Origin: Bacillota bacterium
GTDB lineage: Bacteria; Bacillota; Clostridia; Ch29
Direction of reading: 5' to 3'
Length of the DNA: 64,000 bases
Assembly: GCA_028686075.1 (NCBI GenBank)
Contig: JAQUCT010000004.1
Coordinates: forward strand, 1,833-65,832
The notes under the pieces were generated by a model. It saw nothing but the letters and a program-made list of their open reading frames with translations. It ran no database searches and had not been told where the DNA came from. This document shows positions 48,455-54,805 of this stretch, piece after piece; within the stretch, counting starts at the first letter, position 1, and each line of letters begins with the position of its first letter. A program made the position numbers and the translations under genes.

Positions 48455-48518
48455 GAGCAGCGGTGTGATGTCAAGTGAAAACTGGAAAATATTTTAGAAG
48501 TTCGCTGCTAATAAGGAG

Positions 48519-48797
48519 GTGTATGCCATAAAGGATGCCGACTATTTCGGAGACAGAGAAATACTAACCGACCTGCTTCTTTCCGAAAAACAGCTGTCAA
48601 ACTCATACAATAATTCAGTAAACGAAAGTACCGGTGAAGCCTTCGGCCGCATACTGGAAGACATACTAAACAAAACCCACAGCATGCGCCGTGATGTATT
48701 GGAAGCTATGATAAAACGGGGATGGATTAAGAGCAAAAATGCCGGAAGCCAGGATATTGAAATGGTAAAGAAAAGGTTCGGGCAGCCGAAGGATTAA
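48519..48797 (+). CDS. spore coat protein F-like small protein (second of a pair)
   Basis: 92 aa; start uncertain (GTG abutting the SD). Confidence 0.45.
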   Translation: MYAIKDADYFGDREILTDLLLSEKQLSNSYNNSVNESTGEAFGRILEDILNKTHSMRRDVLEAMIKRGWIKSKNAGSQDIEMVKKRFGQPKD

Positions 48798-48826
48798 AAA
48801 AAGAAGCCGATAACGGCTTCTTTTTT
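48796..48826. terminator. bidirectional rho-independent terminator between the coat-F gene and groEL
   Basis: AAAAAAAA-GAAGCCG-ATAA-CGGCTTC-TTTTTT. Confidence 0.85.
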
Positions 48827-48841
48827 AGGTTTCCTTTAAAA

Positions 48842-50491
<1,650 letters not shown>

Positions 50492-50513
50492 TCACTCCTT
50501 TTATTGATTTTAC

Positions 50514-50798
50514 TTACTCGATTATCGCAAGTACATCGCTCTGCCTTAAAATCAGGTACTCCTCATCGTCCATCTTAATCTCGGTGCCTGCGTACTTGGA
50601 ATAAATAACCTTGTCTCCCACCTTGACCTCAAGGGGTACTCTTTTGCCCTCTATAAGTTCCCCGCTTCCTACCGCCAGCACTTCCCCTTCCTGGGGCTTT
50701 TCCTTTGCGGCTTCGGGCAGCACAATCCCGCTCTTGGTGGTTTCCTTTTTCTCCAGTACCTTTACGACAATCCTGTCTCCTAGTGGTTTGATGTTCAT
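50514..50798 (-). CDS. groES: co-chaperonin GroES
   Basis: 94 aa, [13 protein letters not shown]. Confidence 0.95.
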
Positions 50799-50841
50799 TC
50801 TTTACCCTCCTAACCTATATGTATAGTTTGGCTTCGTGTTG

Positions 50842-50868
50842 TTAGCACTCGCCGTCAACGAGTGCTAA
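50842..50868 (-). promoter_or_regulatory. CIRCE operator (HrcA binding site) for groESL
   Basis: TTAGCACTC-GCCGTCAAC-GAGTGCTAA is a perfect CIRCE; TTGATT-17-TATTAT promoter just upstream. Confidence 0.9.
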
Positions 50869-51016
50869 TTACAGTTATAATAATATTAAAAGCCGGCTGA
50901 GTAATCAAACTCAGTTCCGGCCAATAATCATCCAAAAATGTCGATTTTACCGGGTTACGGCAAAATATCCCTCCGTTTCTTTCCATATTCATTATTTGTG
51001 CCCGATTTCTATAGAT

Positions 51017-51898
51017 TCACCCTCTGCCGGTTATCCTTCCCATTGTACCCCTGGCATAGTAGAACAGGTACTGCTGCGCTACTCCCGCAAGAGGCCCGAA
51101 CTTTTGGACAGCAAATCTTCGAATCTGGGCCAGCGGGGTTTCTCGTTTTAGGTAGTAATGCTCCATAACCCTTTTTACCCACACGTCTACCGGAAAGGCG
51201 TCAAGCTTCGCCATGGAAAAGAGCATAATACAATCGGCCACTTTCGGCCCTATACCGGGAAAGCACAAAAGGACTGACCTTGCATACTCCGTGTCCATAT
51301 TCTCCAGGGAATGCGGGTCGACCCGACCCTCCGATACAATCCTTGCAGCTTGCAAAATATATTTTGCCCTGAAACCGCAGCCGCAAGCCCGTATGTCCTG
51401 CTCGTCCAAGGCCGCCAGCCGGCGGGGTGGAGGAAAATCGAAATAGGCCTCCCCGTTTTGCTCTTTTCTTTCCCCGAAACTTTGGCACAGCTTTTCTATG
51501 GTTAACATAATCCTTGGTATCCTGTTGTTTGCGGATATGATAAAGGACACAAGCGTTTCCCATGGGTCCTGTTTCAGAATACGTATTCCGCTGCCGTAGT
51601 CTACCGCCCTTTCCATCACCGGGTCCTTTGAAAGGGCCTTCTTAATGGTACCGTAATCTCTTCCAAGGTCAAAATATCCGGCCCAGTATCCATTGAAATC
51701 CTGCTCATTTATACCTTGAAACAGGATATCCCCGTTAACTTTTTTCACACAAAAGGCTCTTCCGCCGGCGACGCCCCTGTAACTGCCGTCCGGCATTCTG
51801 TTCCAGCGAAAACACTGGCCGCATTCGAATACGTGTTCCGGCTCGAAGTCCTTCGTATTCTTAAGCAGTATTCCGTTTTCGGTATTGATATAGTCCAC
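51017..51898 (-). CDS. ogg: 8-oxoguanine DNA glycosylase / AP lyase (Ogg, HhH-GPD family)
   Basis: 293 aa; OGG_N-like N-terminus and HhH-GPD region (...LCFPGIGPKVADCI...). Confidence 0.65.
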   Translation of the reverse strand: MDYINTENGILLKNTKDFEPEHVFECGQCFRWNRMPDGSYRGVAGGRAFCVKKVNGDILFQGINEQDFNGYWAGYFDLGRDYGTIKKALSKDPVMERAVDYGSGIRILKQDPWETLVSFIISANNRIPRIMLTIEKLCQSFGERKEQNGEAYFDFPPPRRLAALDEQDIRACGCGFRAKYILQAARIVSEGRVDPHSLENMDTEYARSVLLCFPGIGPKVADCIMLFSMAKLDAFPVDVWVKRVMEHYYLKRETPLAQIRRFAVQKFGPLAGVAQQYLFYYARGTMGRITGRG

Positions 51899-51993
51899 CG
51901 ATAAACCTCCAGATTATAGATAAGAAATCACAAATCACAGGTGCTAGGTGCTGGCTTCATGAAGCGATATAACCATTGGTCGCTGGCCGCTAT

Positions 51994-53013
51994 TTAATCG
52001 GGAAGCTTCATGTCGCCTTCCTTAATCCATCCTTTTTTCCTCATATACTCGGAAAACAAAAGGGTAATTATCACCGGTGCGACTATATGCAAAAGTAGCA
52101 TCTTCGCGAAAACCGCCGTATTTAAGCCCATCGCATCTACAGTCCCGAACTGTCCCACAAGGCCACTTGTACCCATACCCGCTCCTACAGGCACATTTTC
52201 CATCTTAAAAATCGTGGTGGCAAAGGGCCCTATAACAGCAGAGGCCAGCGTAGGAGGAATCCATATAAGGGGATTTTTCACTATATTGGGCACCTGAAGC
52301 ATTGAGGTGCCAAGCCCCTGGGATACAAGACCGCCCCAGCCGTTCTCCCTGTAGCTGGCCACGGCAAAGCCCACCATCTGGGTGCTGCAGCCCACCGTCG
52401 CGGCTCCGGCGGCAAGTCCGCCAAGACCCAGCATTATGGCCAGAGCAGCACTGCTTATGGGCAGAGTAAGCACCATTCCCATAAGTACCGAAACAAAAAT
52501 ACCCATCGGTATGGGATGTAACTCTGTAGCCCACATTATCCATTTGCCAAGACCGATCATAAGCGAAGAGACACCCGGTCCCACCAGCATACCCGCCAAG
52601 ACCCCCATTATTATTGTAACCGCCGGCGTTACCAGTATATCCACTTTGGTCTCCTTGGATACCATTTTACCAAACTCCGCACCGACAACCGCCGCCACAA
52701 AGGCACCCACTGGGCCCCCCAACTGGTTGCCAACCATACCGGTTATTGTGGAGGCAAACAGCACAAGAGGCGGTGCCTGAAGACCGTAAGCCACAGCCAC
52801 AGCTATTGCCGGGCCGGTCATTTGACCGGCTACAGGATAAACCACCTCATAGAGGAATGGAATATTTAAGTTTTCTCCGATTACTTTAAGAATAAGTCCT
52901 ATTATAAGGGTGGCAAACAACCCCTGGGCCATCGCTCCGAGGGCTTGTATACCATATCGGTGCAGTGAGATTTCTATGTTTTTTCTCTTTAAAAAGCTTT
53001 GCTTTTGTTCCAT
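51994..53013 (-). CDS. polytopic membrane permease of uncertain family
   Basis: 339 aa, about 10 Gly/Ala-rich TM segments, SD GGAGAGGGG; family not assigned. Confidence 0.4.
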   Translation of the reverse strand: MEQKQSFLKRKNIEISLHRYGIQALGAMAQGLFATLIIGLILKVIGENLNIPFLYEVVYPVAGQMTGPAIAVAVAYGLQAPPLVLFASTITGMVGNQLGGPVGAFVAAVVGAEFGKMVSKETKVDILVTPAVTIIMGVLAGMLVGPGVSSLMIGLGKWIMWATELHPIPMGIFVSVLMGMVLTLPISSAALAIMLGLGGLAAGAATVGCSTQMVGFAVASYRENGWGGLVSQGLGTSMLQVPNIVKNPLIWIPPTLASAVIGPFATTIFKMENVPVGAGMGTSGLVGQFGTVDAMGLNTAVFAKMLLLHIVAPVIITLLFSEYMRKKGWIKEGDMKLPD

Positions 53014-53183
53014 TTTAGACCCCTCTCCGCCTTAAAATTAAAATTGACAGGTGGTAATAAAATGCTGTATATACACCTGTCTTGTCTCATATATAATACC
53101 ACTCTCATCCCAAATGTCAAGCGGAAAGAAAATCTGTTTATTCTTAGCACAAGTAACAAAAGAAAGGAGGCGGTGCCCCCCTG

Positions 53184-53831
53184 TCATTTTTTTCTAACTA
53201 TTTTTATCCAACTTTTGTCAAAACCAATCGCTGATAATAATTGATCCTTATCAATGCTTGGTGGTTTCTTAATCTCTATTAGCAGGCAATCATTTGGTAC
53301 TTTTTCTATTATAGTAAACTGTGAACCATGTGGCTGCCAGGTAAAACAATGCTCTTGTAAGTTCTTGTTATAACCTTCTAAGTTCTTTCTATTATTCCAT
53401 TGCCAATAATATAACTCTTGGTCATATCTAATCGTATCAAACTCAAATACAGCTAATTCTTCTAAAGTATTTGATTTCAGTAAAACTACTGTACTGACAA
53501 ATTTATAGTGTTTCCTTACGGCCGAAACTCGTTCGTTCCAAATTGAAAGAACCTGTCCTCCTAAATTATTAGGATTAACTTCTGTAATCTTTGTCTCACC
53601 AAATGAATAAACAGGTGAATTTCTACCTGAAATAAGCCTAACTGTTTTCTCCCATTCTTTGCCCTCTAAACTTGGAACGCCTTTAGTTGCAAGAAGATAA
53701 ACTAACTCACGTCCTAATTTGTAAGCAAAATCAAAAGGAAAACGATTTAATTCGTATGGCGGCAAAACTTTATTCACAGTACGCAAACGAGGAGTATCTC
53801 TCTTAACCATATGTAAACGACCTCGTTCCAT
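53184..53831 (-). CDS. hypothetical protein in an AT-rich island; possibly an orphaned restriction endonuclease (its start lies 6 nt after the stop of the MTase remnant)
   Basis: 215-aa ORF with visibly lower GC and different codon usage than its neighbours; no recognisable motifs; alternative start at M8 with SD GAGGT. Confidence 0.45.
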   Translation of the reverse strand: MERGRLHMVKRDTPRLRTVNKVLPPYELNRFPFDFAYKLGRELVYLLATKGVPSLEGKEWEKTVRLISGRNSPVYSFGETKITEVNPNNLGGQVLSIWNERVSAVRKHYKFVSTVVLLKSNTLEELAVFEFDTIRYDQELYYWQWNNRKNLEGYNKNLQEHCFTWQPHGSQFTIIEKVPNDCLLIEIKKPPSIDKDQLLSAIGFDKSWIKIVRKK

Positions 53832-53837
53832 AAGTAA

Positions 53838-54005
53838 TTAGAGATTACCTATACGCTCCATTCCAGAACTGTTTTCATTTCCTAAAATTATTGGCAGAAA
53901 AGATTCTAACACTGCACGAACTACATTTACCGGTACGGAATTACCAGCTTGTTTTCTTATTTGAGTATCCGGAACTATTAACAAAGGGGGGGCATCACCC
54001 CCCAT
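53838..54005 (-). pseudogene. C-terminal remnant (about 48 aa) of a C5 DNA cytosine methyltransferase
   Basis: Translation ...LLIVPDTQIRKQAGNSVPVNVVRAVLESF... matches C5-MTase motif X (..KQ.GNSV.V.V..A..). The upstream part is absent; the 5' end is a G7/C6 homopolymer hairpin 17 bp from the nitrilase stop. Confidence 0.6.
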
Positions 54006-54022
54006 ATCTCAATCCACTTCCT

Positions 54023-54805
54023 TTATAGAACCCTGTCCTTTAACGCAGTGAAAGTGCGACGGCTCTTTTTCACCTCTTCCAGGTCAATGTTGGCCCAGAC
54101 TACTGTCTCTTTGTCTCCTCCCGAAGCCACGGCGATTCCCCAGGGGTCCACTACCATGCTGTGCCCTCCGAAGGTTACTCCTCCATGGCTTCCCGCGCAG
54201 TTGCAGGAAATAAGGTAACACTGGTTCTCAATCGCCCTTGCCTTGTTGAAAACAGACCAGTGGTCTAATCGGTTAATGGGCCATGCGGCCGGCACCAGAA
54301 AACCTTCCGCCCCTTTGTCCACCATGGCACGGTACAATTCCGGGAACCTCAAGTCGTAGCAGGTGGTTATTCCCCATATGCCAAACTCTGTTCTAACCAC
54401 CGTAATGTCCTTTCCCGGCGTCAGCACCTCGGTCTCCCTGGATTTGTAACCGAACAGGTGAATCTTCCTGTACCGGGCCACTATGTTCCCTTCGGGGTCT
54501 ATAAGCAGCGAGGTATTGAATAGGTCACTGCCCTCCCGCTCCACAAAGCTTCCGGTCAGAATGTAACATCCCAGTTTGGCGGCCAGGGGAGCAAAGGCGG
54601 AATAGGTACGGCCCTTCAGTTCTTCGCTCTCTTCCTCATAGTTGTCAAAATTGGAAAACCCAGTACCCCATATCTCGGGCAGCAACACCAGCTGTAGCTG
54701 TTTATCGTCCCGGTGCATGCCCTCAAGAATGTCCGTTGCGTGGGCAATCCGTTCATCCTTTGTTTTCTCTTCGTTAACCTCCAACTGCAGCACTGCCACA
54801 TTCAT
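54023..54805 (-). CDS. carbon-nitrogen hydrolase (nitrilase superfamily)
   Basis: 260 aa; catalytic E (LPEIW), K (YRKIHLF) and C (TCYDLRFPE) triad context. Confidence 0.8.
   Translation of the reverse strand: MNVAVLQLEVNEEKTKDERIAHATDILEGMHRDDKQLQLVLLPEIWGTGFSNFDNYEEESEELKGRTYSAFAPLAAKLGCYILTGSFVEREGSDLFNTSLLIDPEGNIVARYRKIHLFGYKSRETEVLTPGKDITVVRTEFGIWGITTCYDLRFPELYRAMVDKGAEGFLVPAAWPINRLDHWSVFNKARAIENQCYLISCNCAGSHGGVTFGGHSMVVDPWGIAVASGGDKETVVWANIDLEEVKKSRRTFTALKDRVL

Follow-up and report, generated by a model that had tools for sequence, protein, structure and literature searches.

A probable Type II restriction-modification cassette, damaged in both genes, in a Bacillota genome

Two short open reading frames (ORFs) that together resemble the remains of a restriction-modification (R-M) cassette lie on the minus strand of a 64-kb stretch of Bacillota DNA (GenBank GCA_028686075.1, contig JAQUCT010000004.1, positions 1,833 to 65,832). 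This whole stretch is here called the window, and all coordinates are window positions unless a locus is named. The first ORF (53838..54005, minus strand) encodes 55 amino acids (aa) and the second (53184..53831, minus strand) 215 aa, with 6 nt between them. A further 17 nt separate the start of the 55-codon ORF from the end, at 54023, of a 260-aa carbon-nitrogen hydrolase (nitrilase-family) gene (54023..54805, minus strand; PF00795, E=4e-55), which forms the native left flank. Directly after the stop codon of the 215-codon ORF a terminator scan places a terminator-like hairpin (53161..53182, minus strand), which we assign to the cassette, and beyond it follow the native sigma-70-type promoter (53093..53120, minus strand; TTGACA-16-TATTAT, 11 of 12 consensus matches) and the coding sequence (51994..53013, minus strand; PF13303, E=5e-98) of an EIIC_2 protein of the phosphotransferase system (PTS), the native right flank, which is syntenic in loci L085-L093. 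The GC content is 0.33-0.36 over 53000-53900, compared with about 0.52 in both flanking genes, and averages 0.359 in the island as opposed to 0.487 in the remainder of the window. An earlier reading of these letters, hereafter the original prediction, had given the two ORFs, their 6-nt spacing and the position of a G/C-rich hairpin exactly, and had correctly pointed to the lower GC content around the 215-codon ORF.

The 55-codon ORF holds the C-terminal end of a C5-cytosine DNA methylase, as had been proposed. Its product reaches the ends of both family profiles (PF00145, positions 297-321 of 324, E=1.7e-3; TIGR00675, positions 304-327 of 329) and also matches the PADLOC model MTase_II (E=6e-6). 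Although the PF00145 score of 18.3 bits falls under the gathering cutoff of 22, we regard the homology as secure because of two direct comparisons with more complete genes. When the intact 341-aa methylase of L005, which together with L002 represents distant hosts with an intact methylase partner, was compared by phmmer with all window ORFs, the sole match was the 55-aa product (E=3.3e-15), L005 residues 298-332 pairing with ORF residues 10-44, which places the breakpoint at about methylase residue 298. The same search found no second related methylase in the 64-kb window. The other comparison is with L001, a JGI metagenome contig (JGI 3300065874) from a sister lineage, which ends inside the methylase (M) gene and carries its 3' 131 codons followed by an intact partner gene; the window shares 87% nucleotide identity with the 3' end of this M gene, starting at about 53978. 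The methylase-derived part of the ORF is restricted to residues 11-55, the last 45 codons with the stop (53838..53978, minus strand; motif X region), and residues 1-10 (MGGDAPPLLI) are translated hairpin and junction sequence. Relative to the intact partner methylases of 335-341 aa, about 295 N-terminal codons are absent, close to the 300 estimated originally. Motifs I-VIII and the target-recognition domain are deleted, including motif I (FxGxG), which binds S-adenosylmethionine (AdoMet), and the catalytic motif IV (PCQ), and 44 nt of unrelated junction sequence abut the nitrilase stop instead. Such a remnant would be non-functional as a methylase.

The 44-nt junction spacer (53979..54022, minus strand) contains the ATG of the 55-codon ORF and the hairpin GGGGGGGCATCACCCCCC (53986..54003, minus strand), the sole G6-N3-8-C6 element in 64 kb, with 0.11 expected. 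Seven G-C pairs make up the hairpin stem, which encloses a loop of 3 nt; the fold of the surrounding 61 nt reaches -21.2 kcal/mol (z=-2.5), and the terminator scan counts 7 pairs, 6 of them G-C. It begins 19 nt past the nitrilase stop, and its tail CUUUGUUAAU (CUUUGUU) would provide a weak U-tract. The only indel among strains also falls here, one extra C at about 53993 in the hairpin C-run of L086, L091 and L106, and since this change in length shifts the start of the 55-codon ORF, the N-terminus of the latter is not conserved. Segment 53979-54022 showed no likeness to the L001 M gene, to the spacers of L092 and L093 (two relatives in which the site is empty) or to sequences 5' of intact M genes; no hairpin follows the nitrilase gene in L092 or L093, and an Rfam scan of 52800-54300 returned no RNA family. 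The element looks like a terminator and may be the cause of the deletion, its product, or the old left end of the cassette that now terminates nitrilase transcription. The suggestion that the methylase gene broke at this hairpin agrees with its location at the junction and its absence from empty sites, whereas a causal role is unproven and the element resembles a nitrilase terminator.

The 215-codon ORF belongs to a large family. We found 2695 homologues, all labelled 'hypothetical' and nearly all of about 250 aa. An exhaustive profile search gave 409 clusters at 50% identity, and the family occurs in at least 591 GTDB species genomes. All homologues begin at a methionine corresponding to Met8 of the ORF, at 53810, which gives the 208-aa protein annotated by NCBI (53184..53810, minus strand); the seven codons before Met8 are not conserved, and L001 carries a 2-nt indel there. 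Of the 591 confirmed relatives, which are spread over many phyla, 80 loci were taken from GTDB genomes, and 77 of these have a closely related C5 methylase gene upstream on the same strand, directly adjacent in 75 of them, with a median gap of about 18 nt. In the remaining three the methylase gene is convergent (L009), the gene lies at a contig edge and is untestable (L033), or there is no methylase within 4 kb (L066). The partner methylase is M.HhaI-like over its full length (E=5.5e-70). The window retains this order and spacing, the M stop lying at 53838 and the conserved start of the partner (R) gene at 53810; the tight spacing originally read as Type II R-M architecture recurs in most loci of the family.

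The family itself belongs to no curated or structurally solved family. The 215-aa protein matched nothing in Pfam, NCBIfam, PADLOC or PDB, in keeping with the earlier statement that it has no housekeeping similarity, and neither full-length homologues nor the profiles A1 and A4 (A4 being an alignment of 33 diverse members, down to 26% identity) gave a meaningful match in Pfam, NCBIfam, PHROGs or PDB sequences. The PDB comparison that had been suggested as a check, run with sequences and profiles, named no family: at E<=10, A1 and A4 returned nothing except a spurious cortactin match. Sub-threshold matches to LIFR_D2, DndF and cortactin were regarded as noise. The alternative of a Vsr-like protein, also raised in the original prediction, was not upheld, as neither the window protein nor the full-length homologues matched Vsr at E<=1, and the family measures about 250 aa compared with about 150 aa for Vsr.

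Several observations concern the cassettes of relatives. By tblastn, no family member was found in 72,556 plasmids, and the sole phage match lies on an 8.9-kb 'Bacteriophage sp.' contig that is unannotated and comes from human faeces (MT836739.1:4760-5488), a full-length member 60% identical to P0002, the intact relative that we use for residue numbering; the cassette would therefore be able to travel on phage-like DNA. In two Bacteroidota loci (L039:2966-3712 and L066:3004-3750), and probably also in a third (L063), a 248-aa nuclease-like gene of the NOV_C / DUF3883 type (PF13020) stands immediately upstream of the endonuclease-family gene; it is placed between M and R in L039 and L063, and in L066 an MmeI-like N-terminal fragment is found downstream. 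Upstream of intact methylase genes, at L005:2915-2960 and L002:4915-4975, there is a near-palindromic element, GAACAnATGTTTG, which overlaps the TATAAT box, is partly repeated just downstream and may be an autoregulatory operator of the cassette.

One similarity at the family level was reproducible, to the PADLOC REase_II model PDLC03480 (REBASE-derived, 249 positions). It was matched by 23 of the 58 close members in alignment A3 (best E 1.5e-5) and by 8 of the 33 diverse members in A4 (best E 1.3e-7), and the matches are collinear, for example P0002 residues 31-180 with model positions 9-170. Residues R135, R147 and E164 are invariant in A4, the nearly invariant ones include G50, D74, W82, K85, G103, R104, N133 and W199, and the pattern D74-x8-[S/G]83-x-K85...E164 is kept down to 26% identity. 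A confident AlphaFold model of P0002 (pLDDT 92.1; predicted template-modelling score, pTM, 0.84) contains a helix at 50-61, a beta-hairpin of strands 75-77 and 80-88 and a strand at 97-104, with D74 at the beginning of the hairpin and K85 inside it. The pattern would be in line with a putative active site of the PD-(D/E)XK type in which the acidic residue has moved to another position. Foldseek comparison of the model with PDB gave restriction enzymes as the best matches (NhoI, DpnI and EcoRV), all non-significant (E>=0.05, template-modelling score <=0.38), and comparison with viral models (BFVD) gave uncharacterised proteins only (best A0A6J5LH57, E=9e-12). Neither sequence profiles nor Foldseek matched HhaI, HinP1I, MspI, Cfr10I or NgoMIV in PDB. 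From the gene linkage and the weak profile similarity we infer that the family of about 250 aa is very probably the endonuclease of the cassette, a candidate Type II enzyme; D74 and K85 are its predicted catalytic residues.

Compared with its relatives, the window copy of this candidate restriction endonuclease gene is short by 41 codons in its interior, and the missing residues (consensus IFANCIGAxWKPSNVGLDDVVLxxCAWGAKTVKAxxPxxQ) form the stretch that the family conserves best. The nucleotide sequence shows a clean in-frame loss of 123 bp, with its junction at 53643..53648 (minus strand), between K62 and T63 of the 215-aa ORF, where the window reads GAGAAAAC joined to AGTT. L001, whose copy is intact, has AGAAGA at one end of the deleted segment and AGAAAA at the other, a short microhomology of the kind that is typical of slippage deletions. 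In P0002 numbering the deletion spans residues 55/56-95/96 and takes away the last part of helix 50-61, both hairpin strands (75-77 and 80-88) and the near-invariant residues D74, W82 and K85. The rest of the frame is also altered. A derived substitution at 53493 (minus strand) gives the window allele a serine at R147, an arginine that is invariant in A3 (58 members) and A4 (33 members) and is kept by L107, L108 and L001. In L105-L108, strains of the same species as the window, a coding-strand G-to-A change at 53404 (minus strand) converts W143, in a numbering different from that of R147, into a stop and yields the 135/142-aa variants P0121-P0123; the R gene lies internally on these contigs, and its spacing to EIIC is unchanged. 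L107 differs from the window by 4 single-nucleotide polymorphisms (SNPs) in the 648-nt R ORF (1 synonymous, 2 missense, 1 nonsense), whereas the flanking coding sequence, 2685 nt in all, has a single SNP (Fisher p=0.006). This combination of SNPs and a nonsense change reads as that of a pseudogene. The W143 stop is found on two haplotypes (L105/L106 and L107/L108), with and without V/I and S/R differences, and must therefore have been spread by strain recombination or have arisen by recurrent mutation. The original prediction had seen in the 215-aa ORF a cognate endonuclease that was orphaned, inactive or protected by another methylase; linkage, the PDLC03480 matches and the 41-codon deletion favour a candidate endonuclease that is inactive, and not an intact orphan in need of another methylase.

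Comparison with related genomes identifies the cassette as an insertion. In L092 and L093, whose nitrilase proteins are 88% and 85% identical to that of the window, the nitrilase gene is followed by a spacer of about 35-45 nt and then directly by the EIIC promoter, and neither cassette nor hairpin is present. The EIIC promoter and leader are kept in both relatives and also downstream of R in L001, which places the right edge of the cassette between the R terminator (53161-53182) and the EIIC promoter. The terminator-like hairpin has been kept behind the intact R gene of L001 and is missing from the empty sites; since L001 shares this right junction, the same insertion event would underlie the cassettes of both lineages. 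Between window and L001, the R gene has a synonymous divergence (dS) of 0.67, on par with groEL and EIIC and within the range of housekeeping genes (0.34-0.9), and a ratio of nonsynonymous to synonymous divergence (dN/dS) of 0.074; the window, L001 and L092 are about equidistant (dS 0.5-0.9), L093 being further away. Because the dS of R equals that of housekeeping genes, the cassette would have been inherited vertically under purifying selection since before the lineages split. The same junctions and the 123-bp deletion recur in at least 25 contigs from NCBI, ENA, JGI and Logan, from independent samples and with flanks more than 99.8% identical, and the damaged state is fixed in the population. 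An intact nitrilase-M junction was not found in the sister lineage, L001 ending inside M and a database search with the L001 M fragment reaching 79% identity in its nearest relative. These comparisons suggest an AT-rich insertion that is old and was inactivated recently in the window species. The comparison with relatives proposed in the original prediction thus showed an intact partner gene with the 3' part of M (L001) and empty sites (L092 and L093). Its picture of a horizontally acquired island caught mid-decay stands with regard to insertion, by the empty sites and low GC content, and to decay; the acquisition is old and predates the split from the L001 lineage.

We believe that the locus is a doubly inactivated Type II R-M cassette, in which an M.HhaI-like methylase gene was followed by an endonuclease gene of about 250 codons, and we give this reading a probability of about 0.82. 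The cassette would have been inserted between the nitrilase gene and the EIIC promoter in an ancestor shared with the L001 lineage, passed on vertically under purifying selection and then inactivated recently in the window species. The endonuclease gene has suffered the in-frame deletion between short AGAARA repeats, which removed two core beta-strands with the predicted catalytic Asp74 and Lys85. The methylase gene has lost its 5' end of about 880 nt (about 295 codons), its 45 C-terminal codons now being fused to the hairpin-containing junction. An active endonuclease kills cells that stop methylating, and for this reason the endonuclease lesion probably preceded, or coincided with, that of the methylase gene; once it was there, the methylase would have been dispensable and could be deleted. 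The sequences themselves show the homology, both deletions, the empty site, the linkage of M and R and the polymorphism among strains, whereas the nuclease function of the family, the identity of its catalytic residues and the order of the lesions are inferred. In their present form neither gene should be able to work, and what remains of the R frame seems to be drifting, as R147S and the W143 stop indicate.

Some points weigh against this reading. The order of the lesions, which we derive from the logic of post-segregational killing, is not provable from sequence. The methylase search covers 64 kb, and a protecting methylase may be encoded elsewhere in the genome, though none would be needed if the endonuclease has decayed. 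The family of about 250 aa has no named member, no model in Pfam or NCBIfam and no structure solved; the PDB fold search was non-significant (best E=0.05), and the endonuclease assignment rests on linkage and weak profile similarity. The residue two positions before the lysine is Ser or Gly instead of the usual acidic one, and the proposed catalytic triad is a guess. Finally, a dN/dS of 0.074 could also arise if selection still acted on the shortened protein, although we take it to reflect recent inactivation.

This last point bears on the idea that the shortened 208/215-aa protein has been retained and re-purposed, for example as a DNA-binding regulator or as a dominant-negative 'immunity' factor against a re-acquired enzyme. 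The deletion is exactly in frame, the protein encoded by the open frame is identical in 21 contigs from independent samples, and the terminator and ribosome-binding region are kept, all of which a retained function would explain together with the low dN/dS. On the other hand, a low ratio is also expected if inactivation was recent relative to a dS of 0.67, strains of the same species carry the premature stop at W143, and the window allele itself has replaced the family-invariant R147. Moreover, SNP density in R exceeds that of the flanks about 17-fold, three of the four changes in L107 being non-synonymous or nonsense, and the deletion has taken out two central strands of the predicted sheet, so we consider re-purposing very unlikely. 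Somewhat different in kind is the possibility that the whole family consists of some other methylase-associated protein, such as a Vsr-like nickase, a specificity or accessory factor or a methylation-dependent nuclease. Such a protein would be in line with the lack of Pfam, NCBIfam or PDB matches and of a significant fold match to solved restriction enzymes, with the missing acidic residue of the canonical (D/E)xK motif, with the separate PD-(D/E)XK-type NOV_C gene adjacent in three loci and with the one locus (L066) that has no methylase within 4 kb. However, near-obligate M-to-R pairs, overlapping or spaced by less than 30 nt, in 75 of the 80 loci across phyla are a hallmark of Type II systems, and the sole family-level similarity is to a Type II endonuclease model, while no similarity to Vsr was seen. 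The size of the protein and its predicted single-domain alpha/beta architecture would fit small Type II enzymes, and damage to both genes at one locus is what post-segregational killing logic predicts; a non-endonuclease role thus seems unlikely to us. By far the least plausible explanation is that the truncations arose artificially when this metagenome-derived contig was sequenced or assembled, for instance by a collapse at the homopolymer hairpin, the length of which does differ by 1 nt between assemblies. It was rejected, the same structure being shared by the at least 25 independent contigs from four sources and different samples, and the deletion lying away from any collapsible repeat.

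The doubly inactivated cassette can be compared with several known systems. With M.HhaI (PF00145/TIGR00675; PDB 1MHT, 10MH), the intact partners L002 and L005 align over their full length (E=5.5e-70 and 1.2e-67; residues 18-318 versus 8-318), the catalytic domain being highly similar, and the window remnant corresponds to the motif X region (...QAGNSVPVNV...). The window differs in having kept no more than 45 codons out of about 340, with loss of the motifs for AdoMet binding and the catalytic Cys, and the target-recognition region of the intact partners is shorter, with the two recognition loops not conserved, so that GCGC specificity cannot be assumed. Deducing the recognition site from the likeness to M.HhaI was accordingly rejected, the catalytic domain being close but the recognition loops unconserved. 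Palindrome avoidance in 533 kb of host DNA around 80 intact cassettes, analysed without a control set, showed depletion of CTAG, GATC, GGCC and GGWCC only, which are commonly avoided; GCGC was not depleted in this DNA. In the whole window GATC is under-represented (observed/expected ratio 0.31), as are CTAG (0.45), CGCG (0.50) and GCGC (0.54), which hints at other restriction systems in the genome, possibly active or past.

For the endonuclease, members of the PDLC03480 family have a similar length of about 250 aa and give weak, collinear matches. Typical members of our family score 13-15 bits, however, far under the level for membership, and PDLC03480 would be a distant relative at best. Variants of the PD-(D/E)XK site with a relocated acidic residue are known from Cfr10I/NgoMIV ('D...SxK...E'), HinP1I ('QxK') and MspI ('NxK'), enzymes that pair with C5 methylases. 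The D74-x8-[S/G]83-x-K85 motif on a beta-hairpin and the invariant E164 are reminiscent of these sites, but E164 lies about 79 residues past the lysine, compared with about 13 in Cfr10I/NgoMIV. It is conceivable, if rather less than an even bet, that the family is a widespread clade of Type II restriction endonucleases with an atypical D-x8-(S/G)xK...E site and an HhaI-like methylase partner, structurally and biochemically uncharacterised and without a close PDB neighbour, and that the window records how the core of such an enzyme was deleted first and its methylase lost after.

Work by Kobayashi, by Seshasayee and by Oliveira and Rocha has reportedly indicated that losing R is how orphan methylases come about, and that post-segregational killing limits which gene can go first. 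Like other degraded R-M systems, the window locus would be a foreign AT-rich cassette decaying in place, its endonuclease disabled by a survivable lesion. The usual end point of such decay is an intact orphan methylase, whereas in the window the methylase gene has lost more than the endonuclease gene, of which a long, crippled frame remains open.

Three further features lie in the neighbourhood. The EIIC leader (53048-53120, minus strand) contains a perfect 10-bp palindrome, TGTATATACA, at 53066-53075, within a hairpin with an 8-bp stem, GACAGGTG...CACCTGTC. The TGTATATACA element resembles a GntR-type operator, is conserved in L092 and L001 and partly in L093, has no Rfam match and is adjoined by a strain SNP at 53065. 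In L001 (1170-5607, corresponding to window 48513-53160) a 4.5-kb block, EIIC-OGG-groES-groEL-CoatF, has the opposite orientation to that in the window, L092 and L093; one of its breakpoints falls within the EIIC 5' leader, and therefore the EIIC promoter faces the CoatF gene in L001. No inverted repeats were found at the ends of this block. In L093 (2037-2916) the homologue of OGG, an 8-oxoguanine glycosylase, is split over two frames (residues 1-73 and 71-288), which suggests a frameshift or an assembly error.

For annotation, the 208-aa 'hypothetical protein' and the 55-codon ORF would best be recorded as pseudogene remnants of a single R-M cassette, and no 5-methylcytosine (m5C) motif is expected from the window locus. 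As a whole, the finding is a common case of gene decay in a system of a known type, though one that is documented unusually well, and its added interest, which is modest, lies in the full decay series and in the large unannotated family of candidate endonucleases. The series extends from the empty site through the intact sister copy and the doubly damaged copy to strains with a further nonsense mutation, and it would illustrate the less common outcome, loss of the methylase with persistence of the endonuclease frame. The family of about 250 aa, at present 'hypothetical' throughout, could enter annotation resources and be mined for a new specificity or a new variant of the fold.

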